Below, piece after piece: positions 49,472 to 64,000 of a stretch of DNA of 64,000 bases (position 1 is the first letter of the stretch; each line of letters begins with the position of its first letter). A model generated the notes under the pieces. It had not been told where the DNA came from. It did no database searches and saw nothing but the letters and a program-made list of their open reading frames with translations. This stretch comes from an uncultured Pseudomonadota bacterium (lineage in GTDB: Bacteria > Pseudomonadota > Gammaproteobacteria > Xanthomonadales > Wenzhouxiangellaceae): assembly GCA_937138395.1 (NCBI GenBank), contig CAKZPB010000137.1, positions 13,355-77,354 of the forward strand, given 5' to 3'. The position numbers were made by a program, and so were the translations under genes.

Positions 49472-50671
49472 TTGATCGTGCTACGCTCTAAACTCACTTC
49501 TGCTCTTTCGATCGTACCCCTTACGCTTGTGCTGATAACCAGTCTGCTGCTGATCACAGGTTGTTCAGAAGAGCAGTCAAGCACCGTGCCGCCGCCCCGC
49601 CCCGTTCAATTTATCGAAATACAGTCTGCGGACATGCCTGCTCAGTTCGAGTTTTCGGGAAGGACCGCCAGTTCTCGCTTGGTCGAGATTCGTGCCCGGG
49701 TCAGTGGATTTCTGGATGACATCGTGTATCGCGAAGGCAGTATGGTCCAGCAGGACGACGTGCTGTTTCGGATCGATCCACAGCCCTTCCAGGCTCGCCT
49801 GAATGGGGCCCTGGCCTTGCAGGCTCAGCAACAGGCCCGACTCGACAATGCGCAATCGCTGTTGAATCGGGTCATACCGCTGGCCGAAGCACGCGCCGTC
49901 GCTCAAAAAGAACTGGATGATGCGCGCGCTCTCGTCGCTGAAGCCAGTGCGGCGCTGGAAGGCGCCGATGCCCAGGTGTTCGAGGCAGAGCTCAACCTGG
50001 GCTATGCAACCATTCGCTCACCGGTCACGGGCATTGCCGGTGCCGCTGCCCTGCGCCAGGGCGCCTTGATAGGTAGTTCCAGCGAATCACTGACTCAAGT
50101 GGCTCAGATCGATCCGCTCTGGGTCGAGTTCAGCGTGGCAGAAAACCAGCTGTTGCAAAGTGCACGCCGGCAACGCGGAGGTGAGATCCGCTTTCCGGAG
50201 GATGATCGCTTCGAGGTTGAGGTCGTGCTCGGTGACGGTACCGTGCATCCTGAAACAGGACGTATCTCATTCGCTGATGCAGCCATCAGCGATCGCACCG
50301 GCACGCTGTTGTTTCGTGCTGAAATACCCAATCCGGAAGGCAGTTTGAGGCCAGGACAGTTTGTTCGGGCCATTCTCAAGGGTGCTGTCCGCCCTCAGGC
50401 CATTGTCGTTCCGCAACGCGCCGTTCAACAGGGGCCGCAAGGCGCTTTTGTCTGGCTTGCCAACGACAACGATGAGGCTGAAATCCGCCCGGTGCTGACC
50501 GCCGCCTGGATCAACAACGAGTGGTTGATTCGCGAAGGCCTGTTTCCAGGCGATCGTGTCATTGTCGATGGGCTGGTTGGCCTCAGAGCCAATGCAGCCA
50601 TCGCGCCGCGTCCGTACGCCGAGGCTGCCCAAGCGGATGCAAACAATTCCGGCGGACAGGACCAGAGCTAA
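49472..50671 (+). CDS. RND efflux periplasmic adaptor (membrane fusion protein, lipoprotein)
   Basis: Lipobox LITGCSE, coiled-coil hairpin region, and typical MFP blocks (FRIDPQPFQA, LGYATIRSPVTG). Confidence 0.9.
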   Translation: MIVLRSKLTSALSIVPLTLVLITSLLLITGCSEEQSSTVPPPRPVQFIEIQSADMPAQFEFSGRTASSRLVEIRARVSGFLDDIVYREGSMVQQDDVLFRIDPQPFQARLNGALALQAQQQARLDNAQSLLNRVIPLAEARAVAQKELDDARALVAEASAALEGADAQVFEAELNLGYATIRSPVTGIAGAAALRQGALIGSSSESLTQVAQIDPLWVEFSVAENQLLQSARRQRGGEIRFPEDDRFEVEVVLGDGTVHPETGRISFADAAISDRTGTLLFRAEIPNPEGSLRPGQFVRAILKGAVRPQAIVVPQRAVQQGPQGAFVWLANDNDEAEIRPVLTAAWINNEWLIREGLFPGDRVIVDGLVGLRANAAIAPRPYAEAAQADANNSGGQDQS

Positions 50672-50676
50672 ACTCG

Positions 50677-53600
50677 ATGCTGTCGACCATCTTCGTTCAC
50701 CGCCCTATCCTGGCGTCGGTCCTGTCGATCGTAATCGTGCTGGCAGGGACCGTGGCCGGCCTGAATCTTCCAGTCAATATGTATCCGGATATTGCGCCGG
50801 TTCAGGTCACGGTATCGGCCAACTATCCTGGCGCTGATTCCGAGACCATTGCCAACACGGTCGCTTCTCCGCTGGAAACCAGAATCAACGGCGCCGACGG
50901 GCTGCTCTACATGCGTTCTTCGTCATCGGCCACCGGACAGATGAGCCTGACCGCGTACTTTGAACTGGGCACGGACCCGGATACCGCTGAAGTTCAGGTT
51001 CAGAATCGAGTCAATCTCGCCCTGCCCGGGTTGCCTGAAGCGGTGCGCAATACCGGCGTCAAGGTCCAAAAGCGCTCAACCGGTTTTTTGATGCTGATTG
51101 CCCTTTATTCAGACGACGGCCGCTTCGATGAAGAGTACGTCGGTAATTACGCCAATCTGTATGTGCTTGATGCGCTGAAACGTGTCGAAGGTGCGAATCA
51201 GGCGGAAATCATGGGGCTGCCCGATCTGGCCATGCGCATCTGGCTGAATCCTGAGCGCATGGCCAGCCTGGATATCACTTCCGCCGAAGTCAATGCTGCG
51301 ATCGCCCGACAGAATCAGCAGTTTGGTGCCGGTGTCTTGGGCCAGGCCCCGATGGACCGCCCGATTGAACTGACCGTGCCCCTGGTTACTGAAGAAAGCT
51401 TTTCAACGCCAGAAGAATTCGAACGCATCATAGTACGTGCCGAATCAGAAGGCACCAGCGTGATTCGGCTCGGCGATATTGCCCGTGTCGAAGAGGGTAT
51501 TCAAGCCAATCTGCTGCGCTCGGACCTGAACGGCACGCCGGCTACTTTTATTGCGGTGTATCAGCAGGCAGGCTCAAACGCATTGGCTGTGGCATCGGCA
51601 GTCACCGAACGGCTCGATCAAATGAGCGATAGCTTTCCGGACGGCATCGAGTATGCGGTGTCATTCGATACTACCAAGGTGGTTCAGGCCTCCATCGATG
51701 AAGTGATTGAAACGCTGATCATCGCGATCATTCTGGTCATCCTGGTGACCTATTTGTTCCTGCAGAACGCGCGTGCCACGCTGATACCCACGATCGCGAT
51801 TCTTGTCGCAGTCATCGGCACCTTCACCGGCATGCTGTTGCTCGGCTTCAGCCTGAACCTGATGACCCTGCTCGGACTGGTGCTGGCCATCGGCATCGTG
51901 GTCGACGATGCCATTGTCGTCGTCGAAAATGTCGAACGAAGCATGCATGAGAAGAAGCTGCCCGCCAAGCAAGCCACGATCGAGGCCATGGGCGAAGTGA
52001 TCGGCCCGGTGATAGCAACCACGCTGGTATTGATCGCGGTTTTCATGCCAGTTGCCTTTCTGGGTGGCTCCACCGGCGTGCTCTACCAGCAGTTTGCCGT
52101 CACGATTGCAATTTCCGTGTTCATTTCCAGCATCGTTGCCCTGACGCTGACCCCTGCTCTTTGTGGTGTGCTGCTGAAGCCACGACAAGGGGAACCCGCG
52201 GCACCATTTCGCGCATTCAACCGAATGATCGATGGTCTGACCGATCGCTATGGTCAGGGTGTTGAAATCGTCATACGCAGGAGCTTTTTCGGTGTTTTGC
52301 TTGTGGCTTTGATGTTTGCAGCCATTGCTGGACTGTTTCGAATCGTGCCGTCCAGTTTTGTGCCGGAAGAAGATCAGGGCATTTTATTTGCGTCTATTCT
52401 TTTACCCGATGGTGCAAGCCTGGATCGCAGTGAACGCGTCACGAGAACGGCTGCGGATTTATTCTTGAGTCACCCCGCTGTTGAATATGCCTCCAGCATT
52501 ACAGGATTCAGTTTGCTTGATGGTCAGTTCAAGACCAATGGCGGTACCATCTTCGTATCGCTCAAGGATTTTGAAGAGCGGACTGATGCCGAACTGTCAC
52601 TCGATCAATTGATGCAATTCGTCCGCCCCCGGCTGCTGGGGCTGAATGACGGGCTGGGCATTCCGATCAACCCACCTGCAGTCCCCGGGTTGGGCAGCCA
52701 GGGTGGATTCGAGTTCTGGATCGAGAGCCGGGAATCGGGTGATCCCCAGGTACTGTCCGCGGCCGTCAAGAATTTTCTAGGCCAGGCTAATACACGCCCA
52801 GCGCTGACTGGATTGACCTCGACATTCAATCCCAATGCGCGTCAACTGCTGATCCGCGTTGATCGAGTTCGGGCCGAAACGCTGGGTGTGCCGGTGGAAT
52901 CCATTTATGCCGCCATGCAAACCATGTTTGGTGGTGCTTATGTCAGCCAGTACAACAAATCGGGGCGCGTCTGGAACGTGATCGTCCAAGGCGATGCTAC
53001 GTTTCGAGATGACACGAGTGATCTTGAACGCATCAAGATTCGACAGCGCAATGGTGCGCTCGTGCCCCTATCCGCTGTGGTTACGCATGAATTCCGTCCC
53101 GGTCCTGACTTTGTCACTCGATTCAATGGCGCAATCGCTGCACGCATTACTGGTGATGCCGCGCGCGGCTTCAGTTCCGGCGATGCCATTGCGGCAATGG
53201 AAGCTGTAGCGACTGAATCACTGCCTGATGGCATGAGCTTCTCGTGGTCCGGTCAGGCATTTGAAGAAAAGCAGGCCGGCTCTACCTCGGCGATTGCCTT
53301 TGCCTTTGGCCTTGTGCTGATCTTTCTGATACTGGCCGCGCAATATGAGCGTTGGTCGCTTCCCCTGGCTATCATTACAGCCGTTCCGTTTGGTGTATTC
53401 GGTGCCATCGTTGCGGTCTGGTTACGTGGCATGGAAAATGATGTGTACTTCCAGATCGGCCTGATTACGTTGATAGGCCTGTCGGCAAAAAATGCCATCC
53501 TGATTGTAGAATTTGCCCAGATCAAATTCAATCAGGGGCTGCCGGTTGCTCAGGCTGCTGTCGAGGCGGCCCGACAACGCCTGCGTCCGATTCTCATGAC

Positions 53601-53805
53601 TTCGCTGTCGTTTATCCTGGGTACCTTGCCACTGGTTATTGCCTCAGGTGCCGGTGCCAATGCACGTCATTCCATTGGGACGGGCGTCATGGGCGGGATG
53701 ATTGCAGCGACCTCGCTTGCACTCTTCTTTGTGCCGTTGTTTTATGTGCTGATCATGCGCAGGGCCAAACCGCCCAGCACAGGTGAACCAAAGGAAGCCG
53801 CGTGA
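50677..53805 (+). CDS. RND multidrug efflux permease (AcrB/MexB family)
   Basis: MLSTIFVHRPILASVLSIVIVLAG start, about 1040 aa, 12-TM architecture. The ORF-track N-terminal extension (50521-50676) was rejected. Confidence 0.93.
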   Translation: MLSTIFVHRPILASVLSIVIVLAGTVAGLNLPVNMYPDIAPVQVTVSANYPGADSETIANTVASPLETRINGADGLLYMRSSSSATGQMSLTAYFELGTDPDTAEVQVQNRVNLALPGLPEAVRNTGVKVQKRSTGFLMLIALYSDDGRFDEEYVGNYANLYVLDALKRVEGANQAEIMGLPDLAMRIWLNPERMASLDITSAEVNAAIARQNQQFGAGVLGQAPMDRPIELTVPLVTEESFSTPEEFERIIVRAESEGTSVIRLGDIARVEEGIQANLLRSDLNGTPATFIAVYQQAGSNALAVASAVTERLDQMSDSFPDGIEYAVSFDTTKVVQASIDEVIETLIIAIILVILVTYLFLQNARATLIPTIAILVAVIGTFTGMLLLGFSLNLMTLLGLVLAIGIVVDDAIVVVENVERSMHEKKLPAKQATIEAMGEVIGPVIATTLVLIAVFMPVAFLGGSTGVLYQQFAVTIAISVFISSIVALTLTPALCGVLLKPRQGEPAAPFRAFNRMIDGLTDRYGQGVEIVIRRSFFGVLLVALMFAAIAGLFRIVPSSFVPEEDQGILFASILLPDGASLDRSERVTRTAADLFLSHPAVEYASSITGFSLLDGQFKTNGGTIFVSLKDFEERTDAELSLDQLMQFVRPRLLGLNDGLGIPINPPAVPGLGSQGGFEFWIESRESGDPQVLSAAVKNFLGQANTRPALTGLTSTFNPNARQLLIRVDRVRAETLGVPVESIYAAMQTMFGGAYVSQYNKSGRVWNVIVQGDATFRDDTSDLERIKIRQRNGALVPLSAVVTHEFRPGPDFVTRFNGAIAARITGDAARGFSSGDAIAAMEAVATESLPDGMSFSWSGQAFEEKQAGSTSAIAFAFGLVLIFLILAAQYERWSLPLAIITAVPFGVFGAIVAVWLRGMENDVYFQIGLITLIGLSAKNAILIVEFAQIKFNQGLPVAQAAVEAARQRLRPILMTSLSFILGTLPLVIASGAGANARHSIGTGVMGGMIAATSLALFFVPLFYVLIMRRAKPPSTGEPKEAA

Positions 53806-55223
53806 GGTCGATTGCCCGCTTACTGCTGATGCTGGGCTCGCTGCTACTGACCGCCTGTGCAGTCGGTCCGGCTTATCAAGCGCCAGCTGATCCCTCCCCT
53901 GTCGCGTTTCGAATTCCGCATCCAGAGGCCTCGGAGACGGCCGACCTGCTCTGGTGGCAATCATTCAATGATCCTGCGCTGGATCGCTTGATTGAACTGG
54001 CGGTTAGCAATAATCTCGATGTACAGATTGCCGCGGCACGAATCGATGAATTTGCGGCACGCGTTGGTCTGGCGCGTTCTGCTGGTCTGCCTCAGGTGGG
54101 CTATGGCGTTGGCGCAACTCGAAACTGGCTATCGCGCGAAATAGCGCCCGGGTCCACGCCCGGTATCGATCGAACGAGCGATGCATTCGAGGCCGCACTG
54201 AATCTGAGCTGGGAGCTGGATCTCTGGGGCCGCATACGTCAGTCACGAGTTGCAGCGCAGGGTGAATTCGAGGCCAGCATCGAGCAGCGCAATGCGCTGG
54301 TCCTGTCGCTGGTGAGCAACGTGGCGCAGAGTTATATCCAATTACTCAGCCTTGATGCTCAGTTGAAGGTCGCCAGGAATCGAGTCAATGCTCGCCAGGA
54401 AACACTGGACCTGTTCATGTTGCAGCTCGAAGAGGGCGTCTTGTCTGAACTGGAAGTCGCTCAGGTGCGATCCGAGTTTGAGCGAACACGCGCAGCAATC
54501 CCTGCACTGGAGCGTGAGATCGCAACGCTTGAAAATGCCTTGTCGGTCCTGTTGGGCCGCCCGCCGGGTGTAATCGAGCGAGGACGAACGCTGCAAACAT
54601 TGAATGCACCGTCACTTCCTGGCGGCCTTCCATCGGATCTGTTGGTGCAGCGGCCGGATATTCGTGCGGCAGAGCGACAGCTCGTATCGGCCAATGCCCG
54701 GATCGGGGTTGCCATGGCCGAGCGGTTCCCGAGAATTTCATTGACCGGGCTGCTCGGTCAAGCCAGTGATGACCTATCCAATCTGACCAGTTCATCGGCA
54801 AATTTTGGCCAGGTCAATGCAGGTCTGATTGGCCCGATATTCGCCGGCGGGGCAATCAATGCGCAAATCGAAGCTGCCAAGGCCAGCGAACAAGCCGCAG
54901 CGCTCAACTACGAGGCCGTTGTTCTGACCGCGCTGCGCGAAGCGGAAGACGCCCTCGTGATTCGCGCGACCACGTTTGAAGAAGCCGAAGCCCAGCAACG
55001 ACGCCTGACAGCGCTAGAGGACTACCTGAAGTTTGCAGAAATGCGGTACGACAACGGCTATTCCAGTTACCTGGCAGTTCTGGACGCTGAACGAACACTG
55101 TTTGACGCAGAGCTGTTGACGCTACAGGTTCGTGCTGCCGCACTAGCTTCGGTCATCGGTATCTACAAGGCGTTTGGGGGTGGATGGGTCACAGAGGTGC
55201 AATCGAGCCTGTCAGGCGAGTGA
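53802..55223 (+). CDS. Outer membrane efflux lipoprotein (NodT/OprM family)
   Basis: Lipobox LLTACAV and tandem OEP repeats. 4-nt overlap with the RND gene. Confidence 0.9.
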   Translation: MRSIARLLLMLGSLLLTACAVGPAYQAPADPSPVAFRIPHPEASETADLLWWQSFNDPALDRLIELAVSNNLDVQIAAARIDEFAARVGLARSAGLPQVGYGVGATRNWLSREIAPGSTPGIDRTSDAFEAALNLSWELDLWGRIRQSRVAAQGEFEASIEQRNALVLSLVSNVAQSYIQLLSLDAQLKVARNRVNARQETLDLFMLQLEEGVLSELEVAQVRSEFERTRAAIPALEREIATLENALSVLLGRPPGVIERGRTLQTLNAPSLPGGLPSDLLVQRPDIRAAERQLVSANARIGVAMAERFPRISLTGLLGQASDDLSNLTSSSANFGQVNAGLIGPIFAGGAINAQIEAAKASEQAAALNYEAVVLTALREAEDALVIRATTFEEAEAQQRRLTALEDYLKFAEMRYDNGYSSYLAVLDAERTLFDAELLTLQVRAAALASVIGIYKAFGGGWVTEVQSSLSGE

Positions 55224-56739: not shown

Positions 56740-57582
56740 TTGTGTGAATTGATTCCTGTGAGTTCGTCAAGCCTGTTGTTGCTGGCCGGTGCACTGTACA
56801 TCATCGCAGGGCTGGCATTGATTACCGCCATGCTGAAGAAAAGCAAGTTGCTGTTTGCCATTGCGATTGCACTTGGCATGTTGGCGACGATCACGCATGG
56901 CCATCAGTTATTTCTGGAAATGCAAATCCTGCAGGGCATCAACGCAGATTTCTTTGCTGCATTGTCGCTGGTCGCTTTCATTGTCGTTGCGCTGCTGCTG
57001 ATTTCGGCAATCCGCTTGCCGGTGATGGAAATTCTACCTATTGCATTTTTTGGTGCGGCTCTGATGGTCCTGCTCAAGGCCCTGATCGGGCCAGCACCGA
57101 CCCCGCTCCTGCTGGAAAGTCGATGGCTCGAACTGCACGTCATTGCATCGCTGCTTGCCTATGGCGTCTTGTCGATTGCAGCCATCAATGCACTGTTCAT
57201 CAGCGTGCAGCACAACATTCTGCACCGTCACTTCAGTTCCGGTCTGCTGGATGTGCTGCCACCACTGACTACCATGGAGAAACTGTTGTTCCAGCTGATC
57301 CTGGCCGGCTGGCTGATCCTGACTGTCGGTCTGGCCAGCGGAATCGTGTTTATCGATAGCCTGTTCGCGCAACACCTGGCGCACAAGACCGTGCTGTCCA
57401 TTCTGGCCTGGCTGATCTTCGGCCTGCTGCTGTATGGCCGTTTTCGCTTTGGCTGGCGCGGTATGCGCGTTGTACGTCTCTGCCTGATTGGTATGGCAGT
57501 CCTTGTGCTGGCCTACTTCGGCAGTAAAGCGGTGCTTGAACTGGTGTTGGATCGCCGCTGGCAATCGATCGAAGGCGCATGA
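56740..57582 (+). CDS. ypjD: Cytochrome c assembly family inner-membrane protein YpjD (CcsA-like)
   Basis: Polytopic membrane protein divergent from ffh, as in E. coli. The start is uncertain (TTG at 56740 or GTG at 56757). Confidence 0.8.
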   Translation: MCELIPVSSSSLLLLAGALYIIAGLALITAMLKKSKLLFAIAIALGMLATITHGHQLFLEMQILQGINADFFAALSLVAFIVVALLLISAIRLPVMEILPIAFFGAALMVLLKALIGPAPTPLLLESRWLELHVIASLLAYGVLSIAAINALFISVQHNILHRHFSSGLLDVLPPLTTMEKLLFQLILAGWLILTVGLASGIVFIDSLFAQHLAHKTVLSILAWLIFGLLLYGRFRFGWRGMRVVRLCLIGMAVLVLAYFGSKAVLELVLDRRWQSIEGA

Positions 57583-57589
57583 AGCACAC

Positions 57590-58876
57590 ATGAATTCAAT
57601 TCCGCTGGAAATTCTGCTGCTGTTGATGGTGTTGTTGCTGACCCTGTCGGCCTTTTTCTCCAGCTCGGAGACCGGCCTGGTCGCGCTGAATCGCTATCGC
57701 ATGCGGCACAAGGCCCAGGGTGGGCACCGCGGCGCGAAACTGGCCCAGAAGCTGCTGAACAAGCCGGATCGAATGTTCGGTTTGATTCTGCTTGGCAACA
57801 ACCTGGTCAATATACTTGCAGCGTCAATCTCAACGGTCATATTCCTCCGTTTACTCGGCGATGCTGGTATCTGGGTCTCCACGCTGGTGCTGACGGTCAT
57901 CATCCTGATCTTTGCCGAAGTGGCACCCAAAACCGTCGCCGCCGTTTACCCCGAGCGGGTCGCCTATCCAGCCAGCTATGTTCTGAGCCTGCTGATGCGA
58001 CTGCTGTATCCACTGGTCTGGCTGATCAATCTCGCGGCTTCCGGACTGCTGCGGATGATTGGCATCAAGCGCGCTGCAATGAATCAGGACCATCTGACTC
58101 GCGAAGAACTTCGCACGCTCGTCAAGGAAGGCGGTCGAACGATTTCGAATGACCACCAGCAGATGTTGATCAATATCCTGGACCTTGAATATGGCACGAT
58201 CGACGACGTCATGGTGCCGCGCCAGGATGTCGTCGGCATCGACCTGGAAGATGACTGGGAAACCATTCTTCATCAACTGACGCGGAGCATCTATACCCGA
58301 CTCCCCGTGTGGCGTAATGATCTGAACGAAATGGTTGGATTGCTGCACATTCGCACCGTGATGGTCAAGTTGTCCCAGGGCAATCTGAATCGACACGAAC
58401 TCGAGCGCTCCATCCGAACGCCCTACTACATCCCCGAAGGCACCTCGCTGACTCAGCAACTGCTGGAATTCCAGAAACGGGAGCGGCGCATGGGCATGGT
58501 GGTCGACGAGTATGGCGATATCCAGGGCCTGGTGACGCTGGACGACATTCTGGAAGAAATCGTTGGTGAATACACGCCGGAAGGCACTGCCCGCCAGCGC
58601 CAGTTGCGTAAGCTGGACGACGGCAGCTGGCTGGTCGCGGGTAACACCACCGTGCGGATGCTGAATCGTCGCATGGAATGGAATTTGCCGACCACGGGCG
58701 CCAAGACCCTGAATGGACTGATGCTGGAACAACTTGAATCGCTACCCGATGGCCATACATCCATTCGACTCGGCGAGCATATTCTGACCATCGTGGATCT
58801 GGGTAGCAACCGGATCCGTAAGGTGCTGTTCAAGCCCTGGCGACTGCGCGACCAGGCAGAAGCCGACCAGGATTGA
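57590..58876 (+). CDS. yfjD: CNNM/HlyC-CorC family transporter (DUF21, CBS pair, CorC_HlyC domains)
   Basis: N-terminal FFSSSETGL (DUF21), CBS pair, C-terminal transporter-associated domain. 428 aa. Synteny with ffh-ypjD. Confidence 0.85.
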   Translation: MNSIPLEILLLLMVLLLTLSAFFSSSETGLVALNRYRMRHKAQGGHRGAKLAQKLLNKPDRMFGLILLGNNLVNILAASISTVIFLRLLGDAGIWVSTLVLTVIILIFAEVAPKTVAAVYPERVAYPASYVLSLLMRLLYPLVWLINLAASGLLRMIGIKRAAMNQDHLTREELRTLVKEGGRTISNDHQQMLINILDLEYGTIDDVMVPRQDVVGIDLEDDWETILHQLTRSIYTRLPVWRNDLNEMVGLLHIRTVMVKLSQGNLNRHELERSIRTPYYIPEGTSLTQQLLEFQKRERRMGMVVDEYGDIQGLVTLDDILEEIVGEYTPEGTARQRQLRKLDDGSWLVAGNTTVRMLNRRMEWNLPTTGAKTLNGLMLEQLESLPDGHTSIRLGEHILTIVDLGSNRIRKVLFKPWRLRDQAEADQD

Positions 58877-59013
58877 TGCTCGCTCCTGGCGGCGGTTCAG
58901 GCGTCGGATTGCGCCCGGAGTCTGGCGGTCAGGAGTCTGGCTGTTAGAATTCCTGACCAGAAATGATCCCGATGCTTGTCCGGTCGTCGATCTCGCTTGG
59001 TTGAAGGTCGGTC

Positions 59014-60090
59014 ATGCTGCCGCTGCCGATCGATCGCGCGGTCAATCACGCAGTCAAACACAAAGAAACGAAGACCAATCAGAGCGCTGTGAATTCACGA
59101 CCAGATCATTCAACCGACACGCTGAATCAGCCGTTGGTCGCCATCATCAATCCGCAGAGTTTTCGCATGAGCCTGCGTGATCGAGCTGAACAAAGCATCC
59201 GGATCGTCGAGACCGCAGGCGGCAAGGTCTATCGGGCAAGCCAGCTCTCCGAGATCGAAGGGGCATTGGCACAAGCGTTTGCTGGAAGCACTGCAGCGCT
59301 TCCAGCACGTCTGGTGATCGCCGGCGGTGACGGCACGCTCCAGGCTTGCGTCAGTTGGCTGGGCCAACACCTTGATGCCGAACAGTGGCCGGATGTTATT
59401 CTGCTCGGCGCAGGAAGAACCAACTATGTCGCACACGATATCGGCACTGGACGCAATTTCCTCAAAACCCTCGACGCGATGTTGACCCAACCGCCTGGCG
59501 CGCTGCAGACGGTTCGCCGTCATACGCTACAGCTCGAGCACCCCGATCTCGGTCAGCAGATCGGATTTTTCGTTGCCGGCGGGCTGGTAGACGATGTGAT
59601 TCGCGAGATTCACCAATGGCGTGCCGAAAAACCAGGCTGGCACCGAACCAACCGCGCCGCGACCGCCATCGGGCTTGTGCGTGAGGGGCTGCGATGGCTG
59701 TCGGGCAAGACCCGCTATACCGCCAGACCCATGACCATTAGAGCCGAGCCGCTCGGTGAATTGAACGGGCCCTGCAGGCTGATCATCATGACCACGCTCA
59801 TTTTATCCGGCAAGTGGATCAATCCCTATAACAGTGTCGGCATCGGGCCGCTACGCATCAATGCCATACGGCAGGATGCGCCCGCGTTCAAACGCCGCTT
59901 TTTGCGGCTGTTGGTGGGTCGGTTTACGCCATTGATGAATCTAGAAAACGGTTATTTATCAGGATATTGCAGTACAATATCAATAAGCAACATCAAAAAT
60001 ATCATGATTGACGGTCAAGCCTTTGATCTCAAACCATCCAGCCCGCTTCGGATCGTGGCCGGCCCGACCGTACGATTTCTACTGCCATGA
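59014..60090 (+). CDS. Diacylglycerol/lipid kinase catalytic-domain protein (DAGK_cat/YegS/LCB5-like fold)
   Basis: LVAIINPQSFRMS, LVIAGGDGTL and ILLGAGRTNYVAHDIG correspond to DAGK_cat motifs (NP.sG, GGDGT, P.GT.N). Confidence 0.7.
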   Translation: MLPLPIDRAVNHAVKHKETKTNQSAVNSRPDHSTDTLNQPLVAIINPQSFRMSLRDRAEQSIRIVETAGGKVYRASQLSEIEGALAQAFAGSTAALPARLVIAGGDGTLQACVSWLGQHLDAEQWPDVILLGAGRTNYVAHDIGTGRNFLKTLDAMLTQPPGALQTVRRHTLQLEHPDLGQQIGFFVAGGLVDDVIREIHQWRAEKPGWHRTNRAATAIGLVREGLRWLSGKTRYTARPMTIRAEPLGELNGPCRLIIMTTLILSGKWINPYNSVGIGPLRINAIRQDAPAFKRRFLRLLVGRFTPLMNLENGYLSGYCSTISISNIKNIMIDGQAFDLKPSSPLRIVAGPTVRFLLP

Positions 60091-61046
60091 AAGACCTGAC
60101 CACTGTCGATTTGATGCATCAAGATCTGACCGGCAGCCTGCCCGAGGGTCTTGAACCGCTGTTGAGCAAGCTGCACTCGCGCTTCGGCGAAGCGCTATGC
60201 GGCGTGGTGCTGTACGGGTCATGCCGCCGTATGGACGATACCAGTGAAGGCCTGGTCGATTTGATGGCCATTGTATCCAGCTATCGTGCAGTTCACGGCC
60301 GGGGGCTTTCGGCGGTGTTGAATCGTCTAGTGCCACCAAACGTCTACTATCTTGAAGCGCGGTCCGATGCGTCCGGATCCAGTGCGGAACACATCATTCG
60401 CTGCAAGTACATTGTCATCACGGCATCACAGCTGCAGCAGCGCTGCAGTACTGGATTGGACGCGTATTTCTGGGCGCGCTTCACCCAGCCCTGCCGCATG
60501 GTGTGGCAGCGCAATCCAAGCGAGCTGCAGGCCATGACACGTTGCCGCGTCAATGCAGCAGAACGATTCGCACGTAAAGCAGCGCTGCTTGGGCCTGCCG
60601 AACTCAGTGGCGAAGCATTCTGGGTTCGTGCCATCCAGGCCAGCTACGGCTGCGAACTTCGACCGGAAGCGCCCGCTGCAGCAGCTCGACTGGTCGCGCA
60701 TGATCAGCAGTTCTGGCAGCAGCTGACTGCCGCTGTGGCTCAAGATTCAATGCTGATCCAACTACAGCACGATCAGCGCAACCAGTACCGAATCAGACTG
60801 ACGTCGACTCAACGGCTGTCGGGCACCGTTGAATGGGCGCTGCGCCGCGTATGGGGAAAAACCAAGAATGCCCTGCGTGTGCTCAAAGCCGCAGGCACAT
60901 TCACAAATGGCCTGGATTACCTGGTCTGGAAAATCGAGCGCCACAGCGGCATCCGCGTAGAGCCAACGGAGCGGATGCGACGCCATCCACGATTGGCTGC
61001 CTGGGGTCTGGTATTTCGTCTTTGGCGTGAAGGCGCGTTTCGATGA
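60087..61046 (+). CDS. Tam41/Mmp37-like nucleotidyltransferase (putative phosphatidate cytidylyltransferase fold)
   Basis: VVLYGSCRR, LVDLMAIVSSY, PPNVYYLEA...IRCKYIVITASQL and YFWARFTQPCRMV run parallel to yeast Tam41 blocks FGYGSGVF, IDIILGV, GVYFNPF...VKYGVVS and YLAGRLQKPV, as recalled from memory. Confidence 0.6.
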   Translation: MKDLTTVDLMHQDLTGSLPEGLEPLLSKLHSRFGEALCGVVLYGSCRRMDDTSEGLVDLMAIVSSYRAVHGRGLSAVLNRLVPPNVYYLEARSDASGSSAEHIIRCKYIVITASQLQQRCSTGLDAYFWARFTQPCRMVWQRNPSELQAMTRCRVNAAERFARKAALLGPAELSGEAFWVRAIQASYGCELRPEAPAAAARLVAHDQQFWQQLTAAVAQDSMLIQLQHDQRNQYRIRLTSTQRLSGTVEWALRRVWGKTKNALRVLKAAGTFTNGLDYLVWKIERHSGIRVEPTERMRRHPRLAAWGLVFRLWREGAFR

Positions 61047-62830
61047 ACAACGCCGTTACATCCGCAGCTGAATCGCCCGATTCGACCACTACCAGCGGCA
61101 GCGGCCGGATGCTGTTTGCCTTTTTGAGGCGTTATCCGGCGCGCAGCGGCCTGGTGCTGATTGCACTGCTGGCCTCCAGCCTGCTGGACGGCGTTGGTTT
61201 GTCAGCTATTCTGACCATGCTGTCCCAGGCAACTGAAAGCATCACATCGGACGGTTCATTGAGCCAGCACTCGTTGCCTGAACAGTGGATCGCGCAGGTG
61301 TTCAGCGCACTGGGGCTGTCCTTCAACTTGTTCAACCTGCTGATTTTCTCGATCGTCATCATGCTGTTCAAAGTCCTGCTGGTGCTCGTGGCCAATCGTC
61401 AGGTTGGCTATGCCGTGGCCCAGGTCGCTACCGACTTGCGCCTGGACTTGCTGCGCGCGGTGGTCAACAGCCGCTGGCGATACTATCTGTCCAAACCACT
61501 CGGCAGCCTGTCCAATGCCATGGCTACCGAAGCTCAGCGTGCTTCAGAAGGATATCTGCAAGGCGCCGTTATGGCCACTCAGATCATCAGCGCGGCGATC
61601 TACACGATGCTGGCGCTGATGATTTCCTGGCAGTTCAGCCTGGCCGCGCTCGGTCTATCGCTGCTGGTGTTGTTGAGTCTGAATCTGTTGGTTAGAATCG
61701 CAGGAAAAGCCGGTCGTCAGCAAACCGGCTTATTGAAATCGATCCTGACCGTCATGACCGACCAGCTAACCGCCATCAAGCCGCTCAAGGCCATGGCACG
61801 TGAACACCAGATGGACACCATACTCACGACACAAACCGAGGACCTGAACCAGGCGCTGAGAAAGCAGGTGTTCAGCAAGGAAGCGATGAAGGCGCTGCAG
61901 GAAGGATTACTGGTCATACTGGCGGCCATCGGCCTCTACATCATGCTGGCCAGGCTTGACATGCAGGCCGGTGCGGTGATGATTCTGATCCTGCTCCTGG
62001 TTCGTATTACCGGTTTCTTGTCCAAGGCCCAGCGCGCCTGGCAGGAAACAGCCATCAGTGAAAGCGCATTCTGGTCGCTGACAGAAGCCATTGACGAGGC
62101 ACGCGTCGAACATGAACCACGACACGGACTTGCCCAACCCGAGTTAAGCGGACAGATCCGGTTTCGGGCGGTATCGTTCAGTCATCCAGGCAAGCCGGTC
62201 TTTGACCAGGTCAACTTCGATCTTCCAGTCCGGAAACTGAGTGTGATTGTTGGTCCTTCTGGAGTCGGGAAAACCACGCTGATCGATCTTGTCGTTGGAT
62301 TGCTCGAGCCGGATGCCGGGGAAATCATTATTGGACAGACCCCGCTGCAGACCCTGGACCAGTTCCAGTGGCGACGCATGATCGGGTATGTGCCCCAGGA
62401 AGCGCTGTTGGTCAATGACACGATTGCAAAAAACATCACCCTGGGCAGCCCTGAACTATCCGATCAAGACGTTCGGGAAGCACTGAACGCGGCCGATGCA
62501 CTGGAGTTCGTGGAGCAAATGCCACACGGTATCCATACCATGATCGGTGAGCGCGGCGGACAGTTGTCTGGTGGCCAAAGACAGCGTCTGGCCATCGCGC
62601 GGGCATTGGTGCAGCGTCCAGCACTGCTCATCCTTGATGAGGCCACCAGCAATCTGGATCAGGGCTCCGAACAGGCAGTGCTCCGGACGATCGAGCGGTT
62701 GAAGGGCTCACTGACCATGCTGGCAGTCACGCACCATCAGCCGCTCAAGCAGATTGCAGACATTGTGTTGCAGCTGGATCAGGATGGTGTCGCTTCCAAT
62801 TCTCACCCGTCTATACAAGGCGCTGACTGA
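61043..62830 (+). CDS. ABC exporter, fused permease/ATPase (MsbA-like type I exporter)
   Basis: Six-TM N-terminal half, Walker A GPSGVGKTT, signature LSGGQRQRLAIARAL, Walker B LILDEATS. Confidence 0.9.
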   Translation: MNNAVTSAAESPDSTTTSGSGRMLFAFLRRYPARSGLVLIALLASSLLDGVGLSAILTMLSQATESITSDGSLSQHSLPEQWIAQVFSALGLSFNLFNLLIFSIVIMLFKVLLVLVANRQVGYAVAQVATDLRLDLLRAVVNSRWRYYLSKPLGSLSNAMATEAQRASEGYLQGAVMATQIISAAIYTMLALMISWQFSLAALGLSLLVLLSLNLLVRIAGKAGRQQTGLLKSILTVMTDQLTAIKPLKAMAREHQMDTILTTQTEDLNQALRKQVFSKEAMKALQEGLLVILAAIGLYIMLARLDMQAGAVMILILLLVRITGFLSKAQRAWQETAISESAFWSLTEAIDEARVEHEPRHGLAQPELSGQIRFRAVSFSHPGKPVFDQVNFDLPVRKLSVIVGPSGVGKTTLIDLVVGLLEPDAGEIIIGQTPLQTLDQFQWRRMIGYVPQEALLVNDTIAKNITLGSPELSDQDVREALNAADALEFVEQMPHGIHTMIGERGGQLSGGQRQRLAIARALVQRPALLILDEATSNLDQGSEQAVLRTIERLKGSLTMLAVTHHQPLKQIADIVLQLDQDGVASNSHPSIQGAD

Positions 62831-63756
62831 TGCGTATGCTATTCAAACGGCTGGTTCGTCGCATCAACAGCATGTGGGTCATCGGCATTGCCAACTGGGC
62901 CAGTCGTGGCGGCATAGAGCGGGTTCAGCGCACCGGCCATGTGCTGGGCAGCCTGCATTACTATCTGGCCTGGCCTTTCAACGCCAAACTCAGGAGAGAT
63001 ATTGGATCTGCGCTCGAGCTGACAAAACGCGAGGCGCGCGCCGTGCTCAAGCAGAGCTGGATTCTGAATGATCAGGCCGCATTTCAGATTCTTTGTCAAG
63101 GCAGCCCGGCGTTTGATCCAGCCCCGTTGATCGATTCTGTGACGATCCAAGGTACCGAGAAACTCCGTCCATATCGCGACAATAAGCAGGGCGCGATCCT
63201 GCTCAGCATGCACATGGGCAATACCCTGCTCGCAGCCTCCAATCTGATTCAGCAGGGCTATGGCATCCGTGCTGTATTCAGGGAACCTCACCGCCTGCCG
63301 AAAGGCTATCTCGAGCAGTGCATGGATCGTGTCGGCCTGCGCCCGATGGGCATGGATCGGGCCGATCCTTCGAAAATAGCCATTGAAATGCTGAATACTA
63401 TTCAGATGGGCGAAATGGTGTTTGTTTTGATGGATCAGGGCAGCAAGAAGCAAGGCCTGCCGGTTACTTTCCTGAACAAGCAAGTACTGATGCCGAGCGG
63501 AATCGTGCGAATTGCCGAGAAAACGGGTGTGCCGGTGTTTCCGGTCAATACCATAGCGGTTCAACCGGATATGCATTTTGAAGTCGGAGAGCCCATTCTC
63601 ATGGGCCCGGACCGCGATGAGAATATCCGAATGCTGAGTCGTCAGATGGAACAGCACATCATCCGATATCCGCACCTGTGGGCCTGGCATCACCGACGAT
63701 GGAAGCGGTATGATTTGCTACAGGATACTGAAACTGAATCAACCGGTCCAAGCTGA
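62830..63756 (+). CDS. LpxL/HtrB-family (lipid A biosynthesis-type) acyltransferase homolog with an atypical catalytic motif
   Basis: C-terminal YPHLWAWHHRRWK resembles PEQYLWLHRRFK. The HMGNTL segment (63211-63228) sits where LpxL has HFMSLE (HX4E). Confidence 0.7.
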   Translation: MRMLFKRLVRRINSMWVIGIANWASRGGIERVQRTGHVLGSLHYYLAWPFNAKLRRDIGSALELTKREARAVLKQSWILNDQAAFQILCQGSPAFDPAPLIDSVTIQGTEKLRPYRDNKQGAILLSMHMGNTLLAASNLIQQGYGIRAVFREPHRLPKGYLEQCMDRVGLRPMGMDRADPSKIAIEMLNTIQMGEMVFVLMDQGSKKQGLPVTFLNKQVLMPSGIVRIAEKTGVPVFPVNTIAVQPDMHFEVGEPILMGPDRDENIRMLSRQMEQHIIRYPHLWAWHHRRWKRYDLLQDTETESTGPS

Positions 63757-64000
63757 TGCCCCTGATCACTCAACGCGTAATGAAAGGGCTGTTGCCATTT
63801 CTGAATCCGCACCAGACTCCAAGGCAGCGCAATCGCCCTGAAAAGATCATTCTGGGTGTCAAATCGGGCCATCGTCCGTCAGACAAACCTCCAGTGCGGA
63901 TCTTTCTCGGTACCGAACGCCAACAATTTCGTGCTGAACGCGTATTTCTATGGTCGGTCGAAAAACATCGCGACCCATCAAGAATCTACGAGATTTATCT
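63756..64000 (+). CDS. Hypothetical protein, 5' part only (runs off the window)
   Basis: ATG overlaps the upstream TGA (TGATG). My translation gives MPLITQRVMKGLLPF...VRIFLGTERQQFRAERVFLWSVEKHRDPSRIYEIYL. The frame is open to the window end, and the family is not recognised. Confidence 0.55.
   Translation, partial: MPLITQRVMKGLLPFLNPHQTPRQRNRPEKIILGVKSGHRPSDKPPVRIFLGTERQQFRAERVFLWSVEKHRDPSRIYEIY

Follow-up and report, generated by a model that had tools for sequence, protein, structure and literature searches.

A conserved Wenzhouxiangellaceae gene cluster with a kinase/Tam41-like pair is a candidate for the late steps of a bacterial sphingolipid pathway

The subject of this work is a cluster of five + strand genes at the 3' end of a 64,000-nucleotide (nt) stretch of DNA from an uncultured bacterium of the Wenzhouxiangellaceae (GenBank assembly GCA_937138395.1, contig CAKZPB010000137.1, positions 13,355 to 77,354), the whole of which is called the window below. 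The predicted products are a lipid kinase, a Tam41-like nucleotidyltransferase (NTase), an ABC exporter, an acyltransferase of the LpxL superfamily and a double glycosyltransferase. We propose, with a probability of about 0.6, that the cluster encodes the later half of a bacterial pathway for sphingolipids, in which the head group is built and acylated and the lipid is flipped across the membrane. A preliminary description of the window had read the genes as phosphorylation, activation, acylation and export of a diacylglycerol-like lipid. The domain assignments agree with this series of functions. The substrate, in contrast, is more likely to be ceramide than diacylglycerol, because the kinase and Tam41-like genes form a pair of the cpgB-cpgC type and because related clusters are syntenic with serine palmitoyltransferase (spt) genes.

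Coordinates 1-64,000 are positions in the window, and g1 to g5 denote the five genes, which are arranged as follows:

58877-59013, + strand: spacer of 137 nt between a corB/CNNM-like gene and gene 1
59014-60090, + strand: gene 1, 358 amino acids (aa), putative lipid kinase
60087-61046, + strand: gene 2, 319 aa, Tam41-like protein
61043-62830, + strand: gene 3, 595 aa, ABC exporter
62830-63756, + strand: gene 4, 308 aa, LpxL/PatA-like protein
63756-64000, + strand, running off the window end: gene 5, first 81 of 764 aa, predicted double glycosyltransferase; the complete gene is at L001:8143-10437
L001:10434-10925, beyond the window: gene 6, 163 aa, overlapping gene 5 by 4 nt

The junctions were read in the sequence as ATGA at 60087-60090 and 61043-61046 and as TGATG at 62828-62832 and 63754-63758, and these sequences and the coordinates of the open reading frames (ORFs) are exactly those from which an overlap at each junction had been noted. 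Gene 5 was completed from the public contig L001, which is 100% identical to the window over its last 1000 nt. This extension past 64 kb, which had been recommended in the preliminary description, yielded the whole of gene 5 and added gene 6. As gene 6 is followed in L001 by a convergent gene, the unit comprises six genes.

When one genome per species was scanned for the cluster, 56 loci were obtained, mostly from Wenzhouxiangellaceae and in a few cases from other gammaproteobacterial metagenome-assembled genomes. The order g1-g2-g3-g4-g5 and the strand were kept in these 56 genome loci, even where the flanking genes were unrelated. Genes 1 and 2 overlapped in 53 of 55 loci (by 4 nt in 52 of the 55), genes 2 and 3 in 53 of 55 and genes 3 and 4 in 40 of 47, and genes 4 and 5 were at most 24 nt apart in all 45 loci that could be compared. 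In 50 of 51 family loci the gene immediately before gene 2 was a kinase gene, and in 47 of 48 the gene immediately after it was that of an ABC exporter. Packing as tight as this is not due to chance. The single operon suggested earlier is well supported by the overlaps and by the conserved order, and the co-conservation in other genomes, which had been named as a point to be checked, is thereby established; balanced stoichiometry may follow from the translational coupling.

In Wenzhouxiangella limi (L145) the cluster is part of a packed + strand operon of 12 genes with the order AMP-binding protein (AasR), epimerase (CerR), acyl carrier protein (ACP), Spt, desaturase, g1, g2, g3, g4, g5, 2-oxoglutarate (2OG) oxygenase and g6. 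At least 13 family loci have an Spt-like gene (52-57% identity) upstream of g1, and the Spt orthologues are named serine palmitoyltransferase by PGAP. The arrangement is different in L008, a 1.15-Mb contig from the window's own subclade, where the cluster and the AasR-CerR-ACP-Spt genes are about 270 kb apart, the latter being divergent to a cerS-like gene, an NTP-transferase gene and LptF-LptG. The Spt of L008 passes the curated NCBIfam serine palmitoyltransferase model (583.6 vs 500); its g2 is only 54% identical to gene 2 of the window. Between the cerS-like gene of the subclade and the gene that occupies the cerS position in the Roseomonas sphingolipid locus, identity is 44%.

Distant loci were collected with a 58-sequence alignment subset; they are metagenome relatives of gene 2 with 33-41% identity. 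A kinase gene was directly upstream of the gene 2 homologue in 33 of 51 such loci, often with a CDP-alcohol phosphatidyltransferase gene ahead of the kinase/Tam41-like pair. LptF/G paralogues were present in 17, AasR in 11 and Spt in 7 of 41 distant loci, and LptF/LptG, a fatty acyl-AMP ligase (FAAL), ACP and a KBL-type aminotransferase were frequent neighbours. This set of genes indicates a bacterial sphingolipid locus, and the literature confirms it. The Caulobacter operon CCNA_01217-01219 (CC_1159-1161) encodes CpgA (with a PgsA/CDP-alcohol transferase domain), CpgB, and CpgC, which is necessary for turning ceramide-1-phosphate into ceramide phosphoglycerate (CPG) by a mechanism that is unsolved (PMC9393093, PMC12275187). 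CpgB was shown biochemically to be a ceramide kinase (PMC10331486). The homologues of CC_1161 carry the Tam41 InterPro domain IPR015222, and it has been suggested that they might form an NDP-activated ceramide (Olea-Ozuna 2024, PMC11324152 and its S1 Text).

Two replicons with gene 2 homologues connect these loci to the Caulobacter operon and to the cluster. A Roseomonas marmotae plasmid carries genes for a metallophosphoesterase, a CDP-alcohol transferase, a protein of the diacylglycerol (DAG) kinase family and the g2 homologue, with Spt and ACP on the opposite strand and two LptF/G genes, and this content and order are those of Caulobacter CC_1158-CC_1163. Plasmid pPNP1 of Pseudomonas sp. 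JS425 has CerR, FAAL, an NTP-transferase, lptF, lptG, a kinase, the g2 homologue and a 781-aa ELM1/GtrOC1 protein that is related to g5.

Some loci differ from these patterns. In L082:7545-19706, and similarly in L091 and L093, lptF, lptG and a Tam41-like gene precede DUF3108, two sulfotransferase genes, three ELM1-family genes and a gene for an 800-aa GT8-ELM1 fusion; in L082 Spt, ACP and FAAL are upstream, and there is no kinase gene directly ahead of the Tam41-like gene. Loci of this type may be for sulfated glycosphingolipids. A gene of the 2OG-Fe(II) oxygenase or Asp/Asn beta-hydroxylase type occurs in or beside clusters in W. limi (L145:12246-12968), in a Logan SRR26421370 contig and at L148:13907-14674, and is not part of the window's version of the cluster; the putative oxygenase may hydroxylate the lipid. 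The possibility that gene 2 feeds CDP-diacylglycerol to a CDP-alcohol phosphatidyltransferase was considered and rejected, such a gene being common near distant homologues and present in neither the window nor the family loci.

Gene 2 had been described as parallel to Tam41/Mmp37. The protein itself gave no Pfam or NCBIfam match, only noise being obtained (TetR_C_20, E 0.5; HalB, E 0.05), and PF09139 was not matched at E ≤1. When a profile built from 31 homologues was run against PDB sequences, there were weak generic NTase matches, and Tam41 chains were not found at E ≤10. An AlphaFold model (AF2) was computed from the alignment of the 31 homologues, with a predicted local distance difference test score (pLDDT) of 89.5 and a predicted template modelling score (pTM) of 0.88. 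In a Foldseek search with this model the top five PDB matches were all Tam41 (E 6.6e-8 to 2.3e-6), with template modelling (TM) scores of 0.48-0.61 over 280-299 columns; the entries matched were 6ig4 and 6ig2, both from yeast, and 7ecd, the enzyme of Firmicutes with CTP-Mg. The next fold class, the aminoglycoside nucleotidyltransferases, reached TM scores of 0.29-0.37.

An exhaustive hidden Markov model (HMM) search at E ≤1e-3 gave a gene 2 family of 1355 representatives (clusters at 50% identity), 494 of which matched at E ≤1e-30. Among 145 representatives that were scanned, 30 matched PF09139 Tam41_Mmp37 at E ≤0.01, with no competing family, and the two that were checked against the gathering score of 24 exceeded it (P0357, 37.2 bits; P0255, 34.3 bits). 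The Pfam Tam41 model finds only about a fifth of the family members, none of the three members scanned was matched by an NCBIfam model, and the named homologues were all labelled 'hypothetical protein' in the lists examined. Fold and transitive sequence evidence together show that the Tam41 assignment is right as a remote homology, though the protein itself is not matched by the Pfam model.

The alignment of the gene 2 family contains one invariant Asp (D58) after G44-S45 as the NTase motif, and K107, R131, R192 and K282 are invariant as well. The active site of Tam41 is atypical in having one of the three acidic residues of NTases, plus basic residues for cytidine triphosphate (CTP) (PMC11646218). 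The one-Asp pattern of gene 2 is consistent with this published site, the comparison being made on aligned residues. No membrane-spanning segment was predicted in gene 2, so the protein would act from the cytoplasm. Judging by the model and by analogy, we propose that gene 2 encodes a CpgC-like enzyme of the Tam41 fold, a putative CTP:ceramide-1-phosphate cytidylyltransferase. Genes 1 and 2 are also connected by a natural fusion, P0317 (662 aa, L059:4390-6378), in which a DAGK_cat domain (aa 19-127) is followed by a Tam41-like part (aa 364-661) and which provides a Rosetta-stone link between them. The P0317 gene is located 17 nt downstream of a gene for a 412-aa protein with a weak NTP-transferase N-terminus and a CDP-alcohol phosphatidyltransferase domain.

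Gene 1 matched Pfam DAGK_cat (PF00781) over aa 41-159 with E 5.4e-9 (36.2 bits vs the gathering cut-off of 23.6), and the GGDGT motif is present in its translation (VIAGGDGTLQ), so that the kinase fold and motif reported for it in the preliminary description are upheld. It stayed under the cut-offs of all NCBIfam DAG-kinase/YegS models: the best score was with TIGR00147 (24.1 vs 118.65 bits), and the DAG kinase models gave 15-20 bits against cut-offs above 340. A phmmer search of gene 1 against PDB sequences returned nothing useful. Identity to the kinase of the W. limi spt operon was 39%. The context expected for a CpgB-type enzyme, a sphingolipid-linked kinase gene directly upstream of a CpgC/Tam41-like gene, was found in relatives; within the 64-kb window there is no spt. 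On the grounds of homology and synteny we propose that gene 1 encodes a divergent DAGK_cat lipid kinase, CpgB-like and putatively a ceramide kinase.

The protein encoded by gene 5, which could not be placed earlier, can now be assigned. Residues 440-656 matched Pfam Mito_fiss_Elm1 (PF06258; E 4e-13, 49.6 vs 27 bits), and its orthologues are named 'ELM1/GtrOC1 family putative glycosyltransferase' by PGAP. Structure prediction was performed with P0121, a protein identical to the L001-derived query, and gave an AF2 model with a pLDDT of 84.8. Foldseek matched this model both to structures of glycosyltransferase (GT) family 8, namely GlyE, 3tzt (TMt 0.61), LgtC, WbbM and UGGT, and to the GT-B enzymes TreT, heptosyltransferase II, MGD1 and a TagF-like capsule polymerase; query ranges were not reported for the fold matches. 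Pfam Glyco_transf_8 was not matched, and a gene 5 profile run against PDB sequences gave nothing useful. Invariant residues of the N-terminal half include N118-D119-x-D121-Q122, a DxD motif, and H209-FTTLHTQPW218. From the model and the conserved motifs, gene 5 is assigned as a double glycosyltransferase with a predicted N-terminal GT8-like domain (GT-A, DxD) and a C-terminal ELM1/GtrOC1 domain (GT-B). Gene 6 encodes a protein with a hydrophobic, signal-peptide-like N-terminal segment and no recognisable family in Pfam; a DUF4124-type assignment suggested by a motif was dropped, as it had no Pfam support.

Gene 4 had been called an atypical member of the LpxL family, and both parts of this label hold. 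It matched Pfam Lip_A_acyltrans with E 1.8e-18 (67.2 vs 22.3 bits), and the acid of the HX4D/E dyad is missing, position +5 after the His being neither acidic nor conserved in 46 gene 4 orthologues. Motifs kept in these 46 sequences are HMGN, MDQ, FL.K...P.G and P..W.WH.RRW. The NCBIfam equivalog models for LpxL, LpxM and PatA all scored far under their cut-offs on gene 4 (PatA, 44 vs 209 bits). Its best match among PDB sequences was PatA, the mycobacterial acyltransferase of phosphatidylinositol mannosides (PIMs), with E 1.5e-4; the E-value for LpxM was 0.35. H128 of gene 4 aligns with the motif His of PatA, and the conserved D202, the Asp of MDQ, with the Glu of PatA 'AERD'. An LpxL-like acyltransferase gene was near gene 2 in only one of 41 distant loci, and this association is almost confined to the Wenzhouxiangellaceae lineage. 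We propose that gene 4 encodes an enzyme of the LpxL/PatA superfamily which may act as an O-acyltransferase of a glycosylated head group.

For gene 3, the fused exporter architecture reported before was borne out by Pfam ABC_membrane (E 1.2e-17) and ABC_tran (E 3.9e-31): it is a half-transporter in which a transmembrane domain with several hydrophobic segments precedes the nucleotide-binding domain. Its designation as MsbA-type was not. The MsbA models scored 226 vs 602 bits (TIGR02203) and 176 vs 867 bits (PRK11176), no NCBIfam equivalog was reached, and by these comparisons gene 3 is not an MsbA orthologue. Homologues with 43-52% identity are found near spt or a Tam41-like gene in the unrelated metagenome loci L071, L144, L113 and L140; in L113 and L071/L144, which represent other lineages, the related ABC gene is next to or near spt. 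Gene 3 is proposed to encode a putative inner-membrane flippase of the finished lipid.

In the proposed pathway ceramide would be made by the aasR-cerR-acp-spt genes and a cerS-like gene, which are contiguous with the cluster in Wenzhouxiangella proper and are at another place in the genome in the subclade of the window. By homology and synteny, the product of gene 1 would phosphorylate ceramide to ceramide-1-phosphate, and that of gene 2 would use CTP to convert ceramide-1-phosphate to CDP-ceramide, as Tam41 converts phosphatidate to CDP-diacylglycerol; the latter step is suggested by the fold, the active-site pattern and the Caulobacter genetics. The step that follows is speculative: the GT-B/ELM1 domain of gene 5 might join a sugar or polyol to the activated ceramide phosphate, and its GT8 domain might add an alpha-linked hexose from a UDP-sugar. 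ELM1-family genes are found directly downstream of kinase/Tam41-like pairs that have no CpgA-type gene (e.g. in L142, L094 and L132), and on account of this recurrence the ELM1 domain is a candidate for the enzyme that consumes activated ceramide. The PatA-like product of gene 4 would then O-acylate the sugar and so add a third acyl chain, and gene 3, as a homodimeric ABC exporter, would flip the product to the periplasmic leaflet. Extraction to the outer membrane would be the task of the LptF2/G2 paralogues with LptB, which act in sphingolipid extraction in Caulobacter (bioRxiv 10.64898/2026.04.12.717747).

A number of points weigh against this pathway. None of spt, cerR, acp, cerS and the lptF/G paralogues is present in the 64-kb window or its extension, and the case for ceramide synthesis in the window's organism comes from the relative L008, with its 54%-identical g2. 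Identity between gene 1 and the kinases in the sphingolipid loci of Roseomonas and Pseudomonas, themselves taken as CpgB-like by gene order, is only 25-28%, and g1 and g2 were likened to Caulobacter CpgB and CpgC by gene order and published descriptions, not by direct alignment. Tam41 has been characterised with phosphatidate as its substrate, not with ceramide phosphate, and CDP-ceramide was not found reported in the literature. The flippase candidate of Caulobacter is Wzx-like, not an ABC protein (PMC11324152), and the role proposed for gene 3 is without precedent.

Along the lines of the preliminary description, the cluster might instead make a glycerolipid, with gene 1 converting DAG to phosphatidate, gene 2 phosphatidate to CDP-diacylglycerol, and the other genes building and exporting an acylated glyco-phospholipid, a Gram-negative analogue of the acylated PIMs or of the pyrophosphate-linked glycolipid MPIase. 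The biochemically characterised Tam41 enzymes, one of them bacterial, all use phosphatidate (PMC11646218; PMC7018664), gene 1 is of the DAG-kinase catalytic family, and PatA, the closest solved relative of gene 4, acts on a glycerophospholipid glycoside; the distance of about 270 kb between cluster and ceramide genes in the subclade and the lack of spt in the window point the same way. We nevertheless consider a glycerolipid product unlikely: the orthologous cluster of W. limi is co-operonic with spt, acp, cerR and aasR, the wider kinase/Tam41-like family resides in sphingolipid loci (see the LptF/G, AasR and Spt counts above, and Roseomonas and Pseudomonas), and the Caulobacter genetics place the gene pair in ceramide phosphate chemistry. 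The same co-operonic arrangement with spt speaks against a locus that assembles or modifies lipopolysaccharide (LPS) or lipooligosaccharide (LOS), in which the roles would be those of an MsbA paralogue for lipid A-core (gene 3), a late lipid A acyltransferase (gene 4) and two core glycosyltransferases (gene 5), genes 1 and 2 supplying a phosphorylated or CMP-activated substituent. This idea draws on the families of genes 3 to 5, as GT8 includes WaaI/WaaJ/LgtC and ELM1 includes the Acinetobacter outer-core enzyme GtrOC1, the A. baumannii LOS outer-core locus being the only literature on bacterial ELM1-family genes found by family name, and on the LptF/LptG genes that in some loci lie directly upstream of a gene 2 homologue. 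Those adjoining LptF/G copies, however, match the sphingolipid-specific LptF2/G2 of Caulobacter (bioRxiv 10.64898/2026.04.12.717747), genes 3 and 4 are far under the curated MsbA, LpxL and LpxM cut-offs, gene 4 is without the HX4D/E acid, and no lpx, waaA or kds genes are among the annotated neighbours, all of which makes an LPS/LOS function improbable.

A further possibility concerns gene 4 alone, which could be an N-acyltransferase, a ceramide synthase analogue, so that the cluster would form ceramide as well as decorate it. The 12-gene operon of W. limi has aasR, cerR, acp and spt and no recognisable bCerS of the GNAT type, and the near confinement of the LpxL-like gene to one lineage (see above) would also fit. 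A separate cerS-like gene, with 44% identity to the one at the Roseomonas cerS position, is nevertheless present by the NTP-transferase and LptF-LptG genes, cerS is always in a different operon from spt (PMC11324152), and the closest solved relative of gene 4, PatA, is an O-acyltransferase. This alternative appears the least probable of those considered. Within the sphingolipid pathway that we prefer, a much bolder version is conceivable and is offered tentatively, with more doubt than confidence: Wenzhouxiangellaceae and some other Gammaproteobacteria that have related loci might make an LPS-like sphingolipid, composed of ceramide phosphate, sugars and an extra O-acyl chain, by means of paralogues recruited from the LPS machinery (MsbA-like, LpxL/PatA-like and core-glycosyltransferase-like). 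CDP-ceramide formed by the Tam41-like enzyme would be the intermediate, bacterial sphingolipids would have in gene 3 the first ABC flippase dedicated to them, and the consumption of activated ceramide, for which an enzyme has been missing, would fall to the ELM1 domain.

The DNA around the cluster is unremarkable in composition: GC is 0.55-0.58 and even over the cluster and its flanks, and this uniformity gives no sign of recent transfer. Upstream lie a Cytochrom_C_asm (ccsA-type) gene and a CNNM/CorC gene and, on the opposite strand, ffh, which was named by reading its translation. The 137-nt spacer is the likely position of a promoter; a consensus scan found no sigma-70-like site in 58877-59013, and in the promoter and terminator scan the sites were no commoner than in shuffled sequence. 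In the window's subclade the cluster comes after ccsA and corB, and in the relatives L003, L006, L007, L008, L010, L012 and L052 a fatty-acid-desaturase gene is located between corB and gene 1. These desaturases are 51-55% identical to the desaturase of the W. limi sphingolipid operon, and the window has the spacer instead, so that in its organism the gene was apparently either lost or never acquired.

Other features of the surroundings were recorded as well. The CNNM/CorC ORF (57488-58876, 462 aa, TTG start) shares about 95 nt with the ccsA-like gene before it; on the identical contig the gene is called as 428 aa, and the listed start is probably over-extended. The interval 49472-55223 holds a run of three mutually overlapping + strand ORFs (399, 1094 and 473 aa). 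The third carries a lipoprotein-like signal at its N-terminus and resembles an outer-membrane efflux factor, and on reading the trio is reminiscent of a tripartite efflux operon. Just past the window, at L001:10954-14089, there is a convergent 662-aa fusion of a fatty-acyl-reductase (FAR)-like domain (NAD_binding_4) and a short-chain dehydrogenase/reductase (SDR) domain (NCBIfam PRK07201, 995 bits), followed by genes for an acyl-CoA-binding protein (ACBP) and a TetR regulator. The FAR-like SDR, ACBP and TetR genes were rejected as parts of the system: they are convergent, occur in one subclade only and are 80-84% conserved, far above the cluster. They are not beside the cluster in Wenzhouxiangella proper.

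The reaction of CpgC, the enzyme that uses activated ceramide and the inner-membrane flippase are open steps of bacterial sphingolipid biology. Bacterial sphingolipids can partly replace LPS in the outer membrane. In the cluster a CpgB/CpgC-type pair is translationally coupled to three candidates, the ABC exporter, the PatA-like acyltransferase and the GT8-ELM1 glycosyltransferase, and the same cluster is present in cultured Wenzhouxiangella species. The high-confidence model of gene 2 offers a testable mechanism (CTP + ceramide-1-phosphate to CDP-ceramide) for a step that two laboratories left unresolved. The large family to which gene 2 belongs is largely missed by current Pfam and NCBIfam models.

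The composition of the cluster had been thought to be undescribed. For the kinase/Tam41-like pair this was not so, as the module corresponds to cpgB-cpgC and is already known genetically, and the cluster is not a wholly undescribed system. For the additions the claim stands: in the literature no ABC exporter, LpxL-like acyltransferase or ELM1/GT8 enzyme was found described in a sphingolipid pathway, nor were CDP-ceramide or sphingolipids of Wenzhouxiangella. The closest known system is the ceramide (di)phosphoglycerate pathway of Caulobacter cpgABC (Zik 2022, PMC9393093; Dhakephalkar 2023, PMC10331486; Olea-Ozuna 2024, PMC11324152; CpgD, PMC12275187). Shared features are a DAGK_cat/LCB5-type kinase gene followed immediately by a Tam41-domain gene, the linkage to spt-acp-cerR-aasR and to LptF/G paralogues, the anionic outer-membrane sphingolipid expected as product and the unsolved mechanism of the Tam41-like partner. 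Unlike in Caulobacter, the cluster operon is without the CDP-alcohol phosphatidyltransferase (CpgA), the metallophosphoesterase (CC_1158) and CpgD, and has the ABC exporter, the PatA-like acyltransferase and the GT8-ELM1 double glycosyltransferase instead. With this content the head group is probably glycosidic and acylated, not phosphoglycerate.

With the Tam41/Mmp37 CDP-diacylglycerol synthase of mitochondria and Firmicutes, gene 2 shares the two-domain fold, its single conserved NTase acidic residue with conserved basic residues is consistent with the Tam41 site, and, like the peripheral-membrane Tam41, it would have to reach the phosphate of a membrane lipid. It differs in that identity is 12-15%, PF09139 is blind to it, the C-terminal helical part is different (TM about 0.5-0.6) and the predicted substrate is ceramide-1-phosphate, not phosphatidate. 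The early operon for PIMs in mycobacteria is pgsA1-patA-pimA. As in the PIM pathway, where a CDP-activated lipid gives rise to a phospholipid head that is glycosylated and then O-acylated on the sugar by an enzyme of the LpxL superfamily, the cluster would combine activation, glycosylation and acylation. The backbone, however, is phosphatidylinositol there and probably ceramide phosphate here, the glycosyltransferases are GT4 there and, as predicted, GT8 and ELM1 here, and the mycobacterial operon is without a kinase, a Tam41-like enzyme and an ABC exporter.

In the synthesis of glycosyl inositol phosphoceramides in plants, the Golgi-located GT8 enzyme IPUT1 glucuronosylates inositol-phosphoceramide, the acceptor being derived from phosphatidylinositol. 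The similarity to gene 5, a predicted GT8-family enzyme that would extend the phospho-head group of a ceramide, is one of description, and IPUT1 differs in being eukaryotic, in its location in the Golgi and in an acceptor made from phosphatidylinositol rather than from CDP-activated ceramide. The LPS machinery (MsbA, LpxL/LpxM, GT8 core transferases, GtrOC1 and LptFG) has the same superfamilies as genes 3, 4 and 5, and LptF/G paralogues go with the ceramide genes in related genomes. The cluster departs from it in that the curated orthologue thresholds are missed, the catalytic motif of gene 4 is atypical and the genes travel with sphingolipid genes, not with lpx/waa genes.

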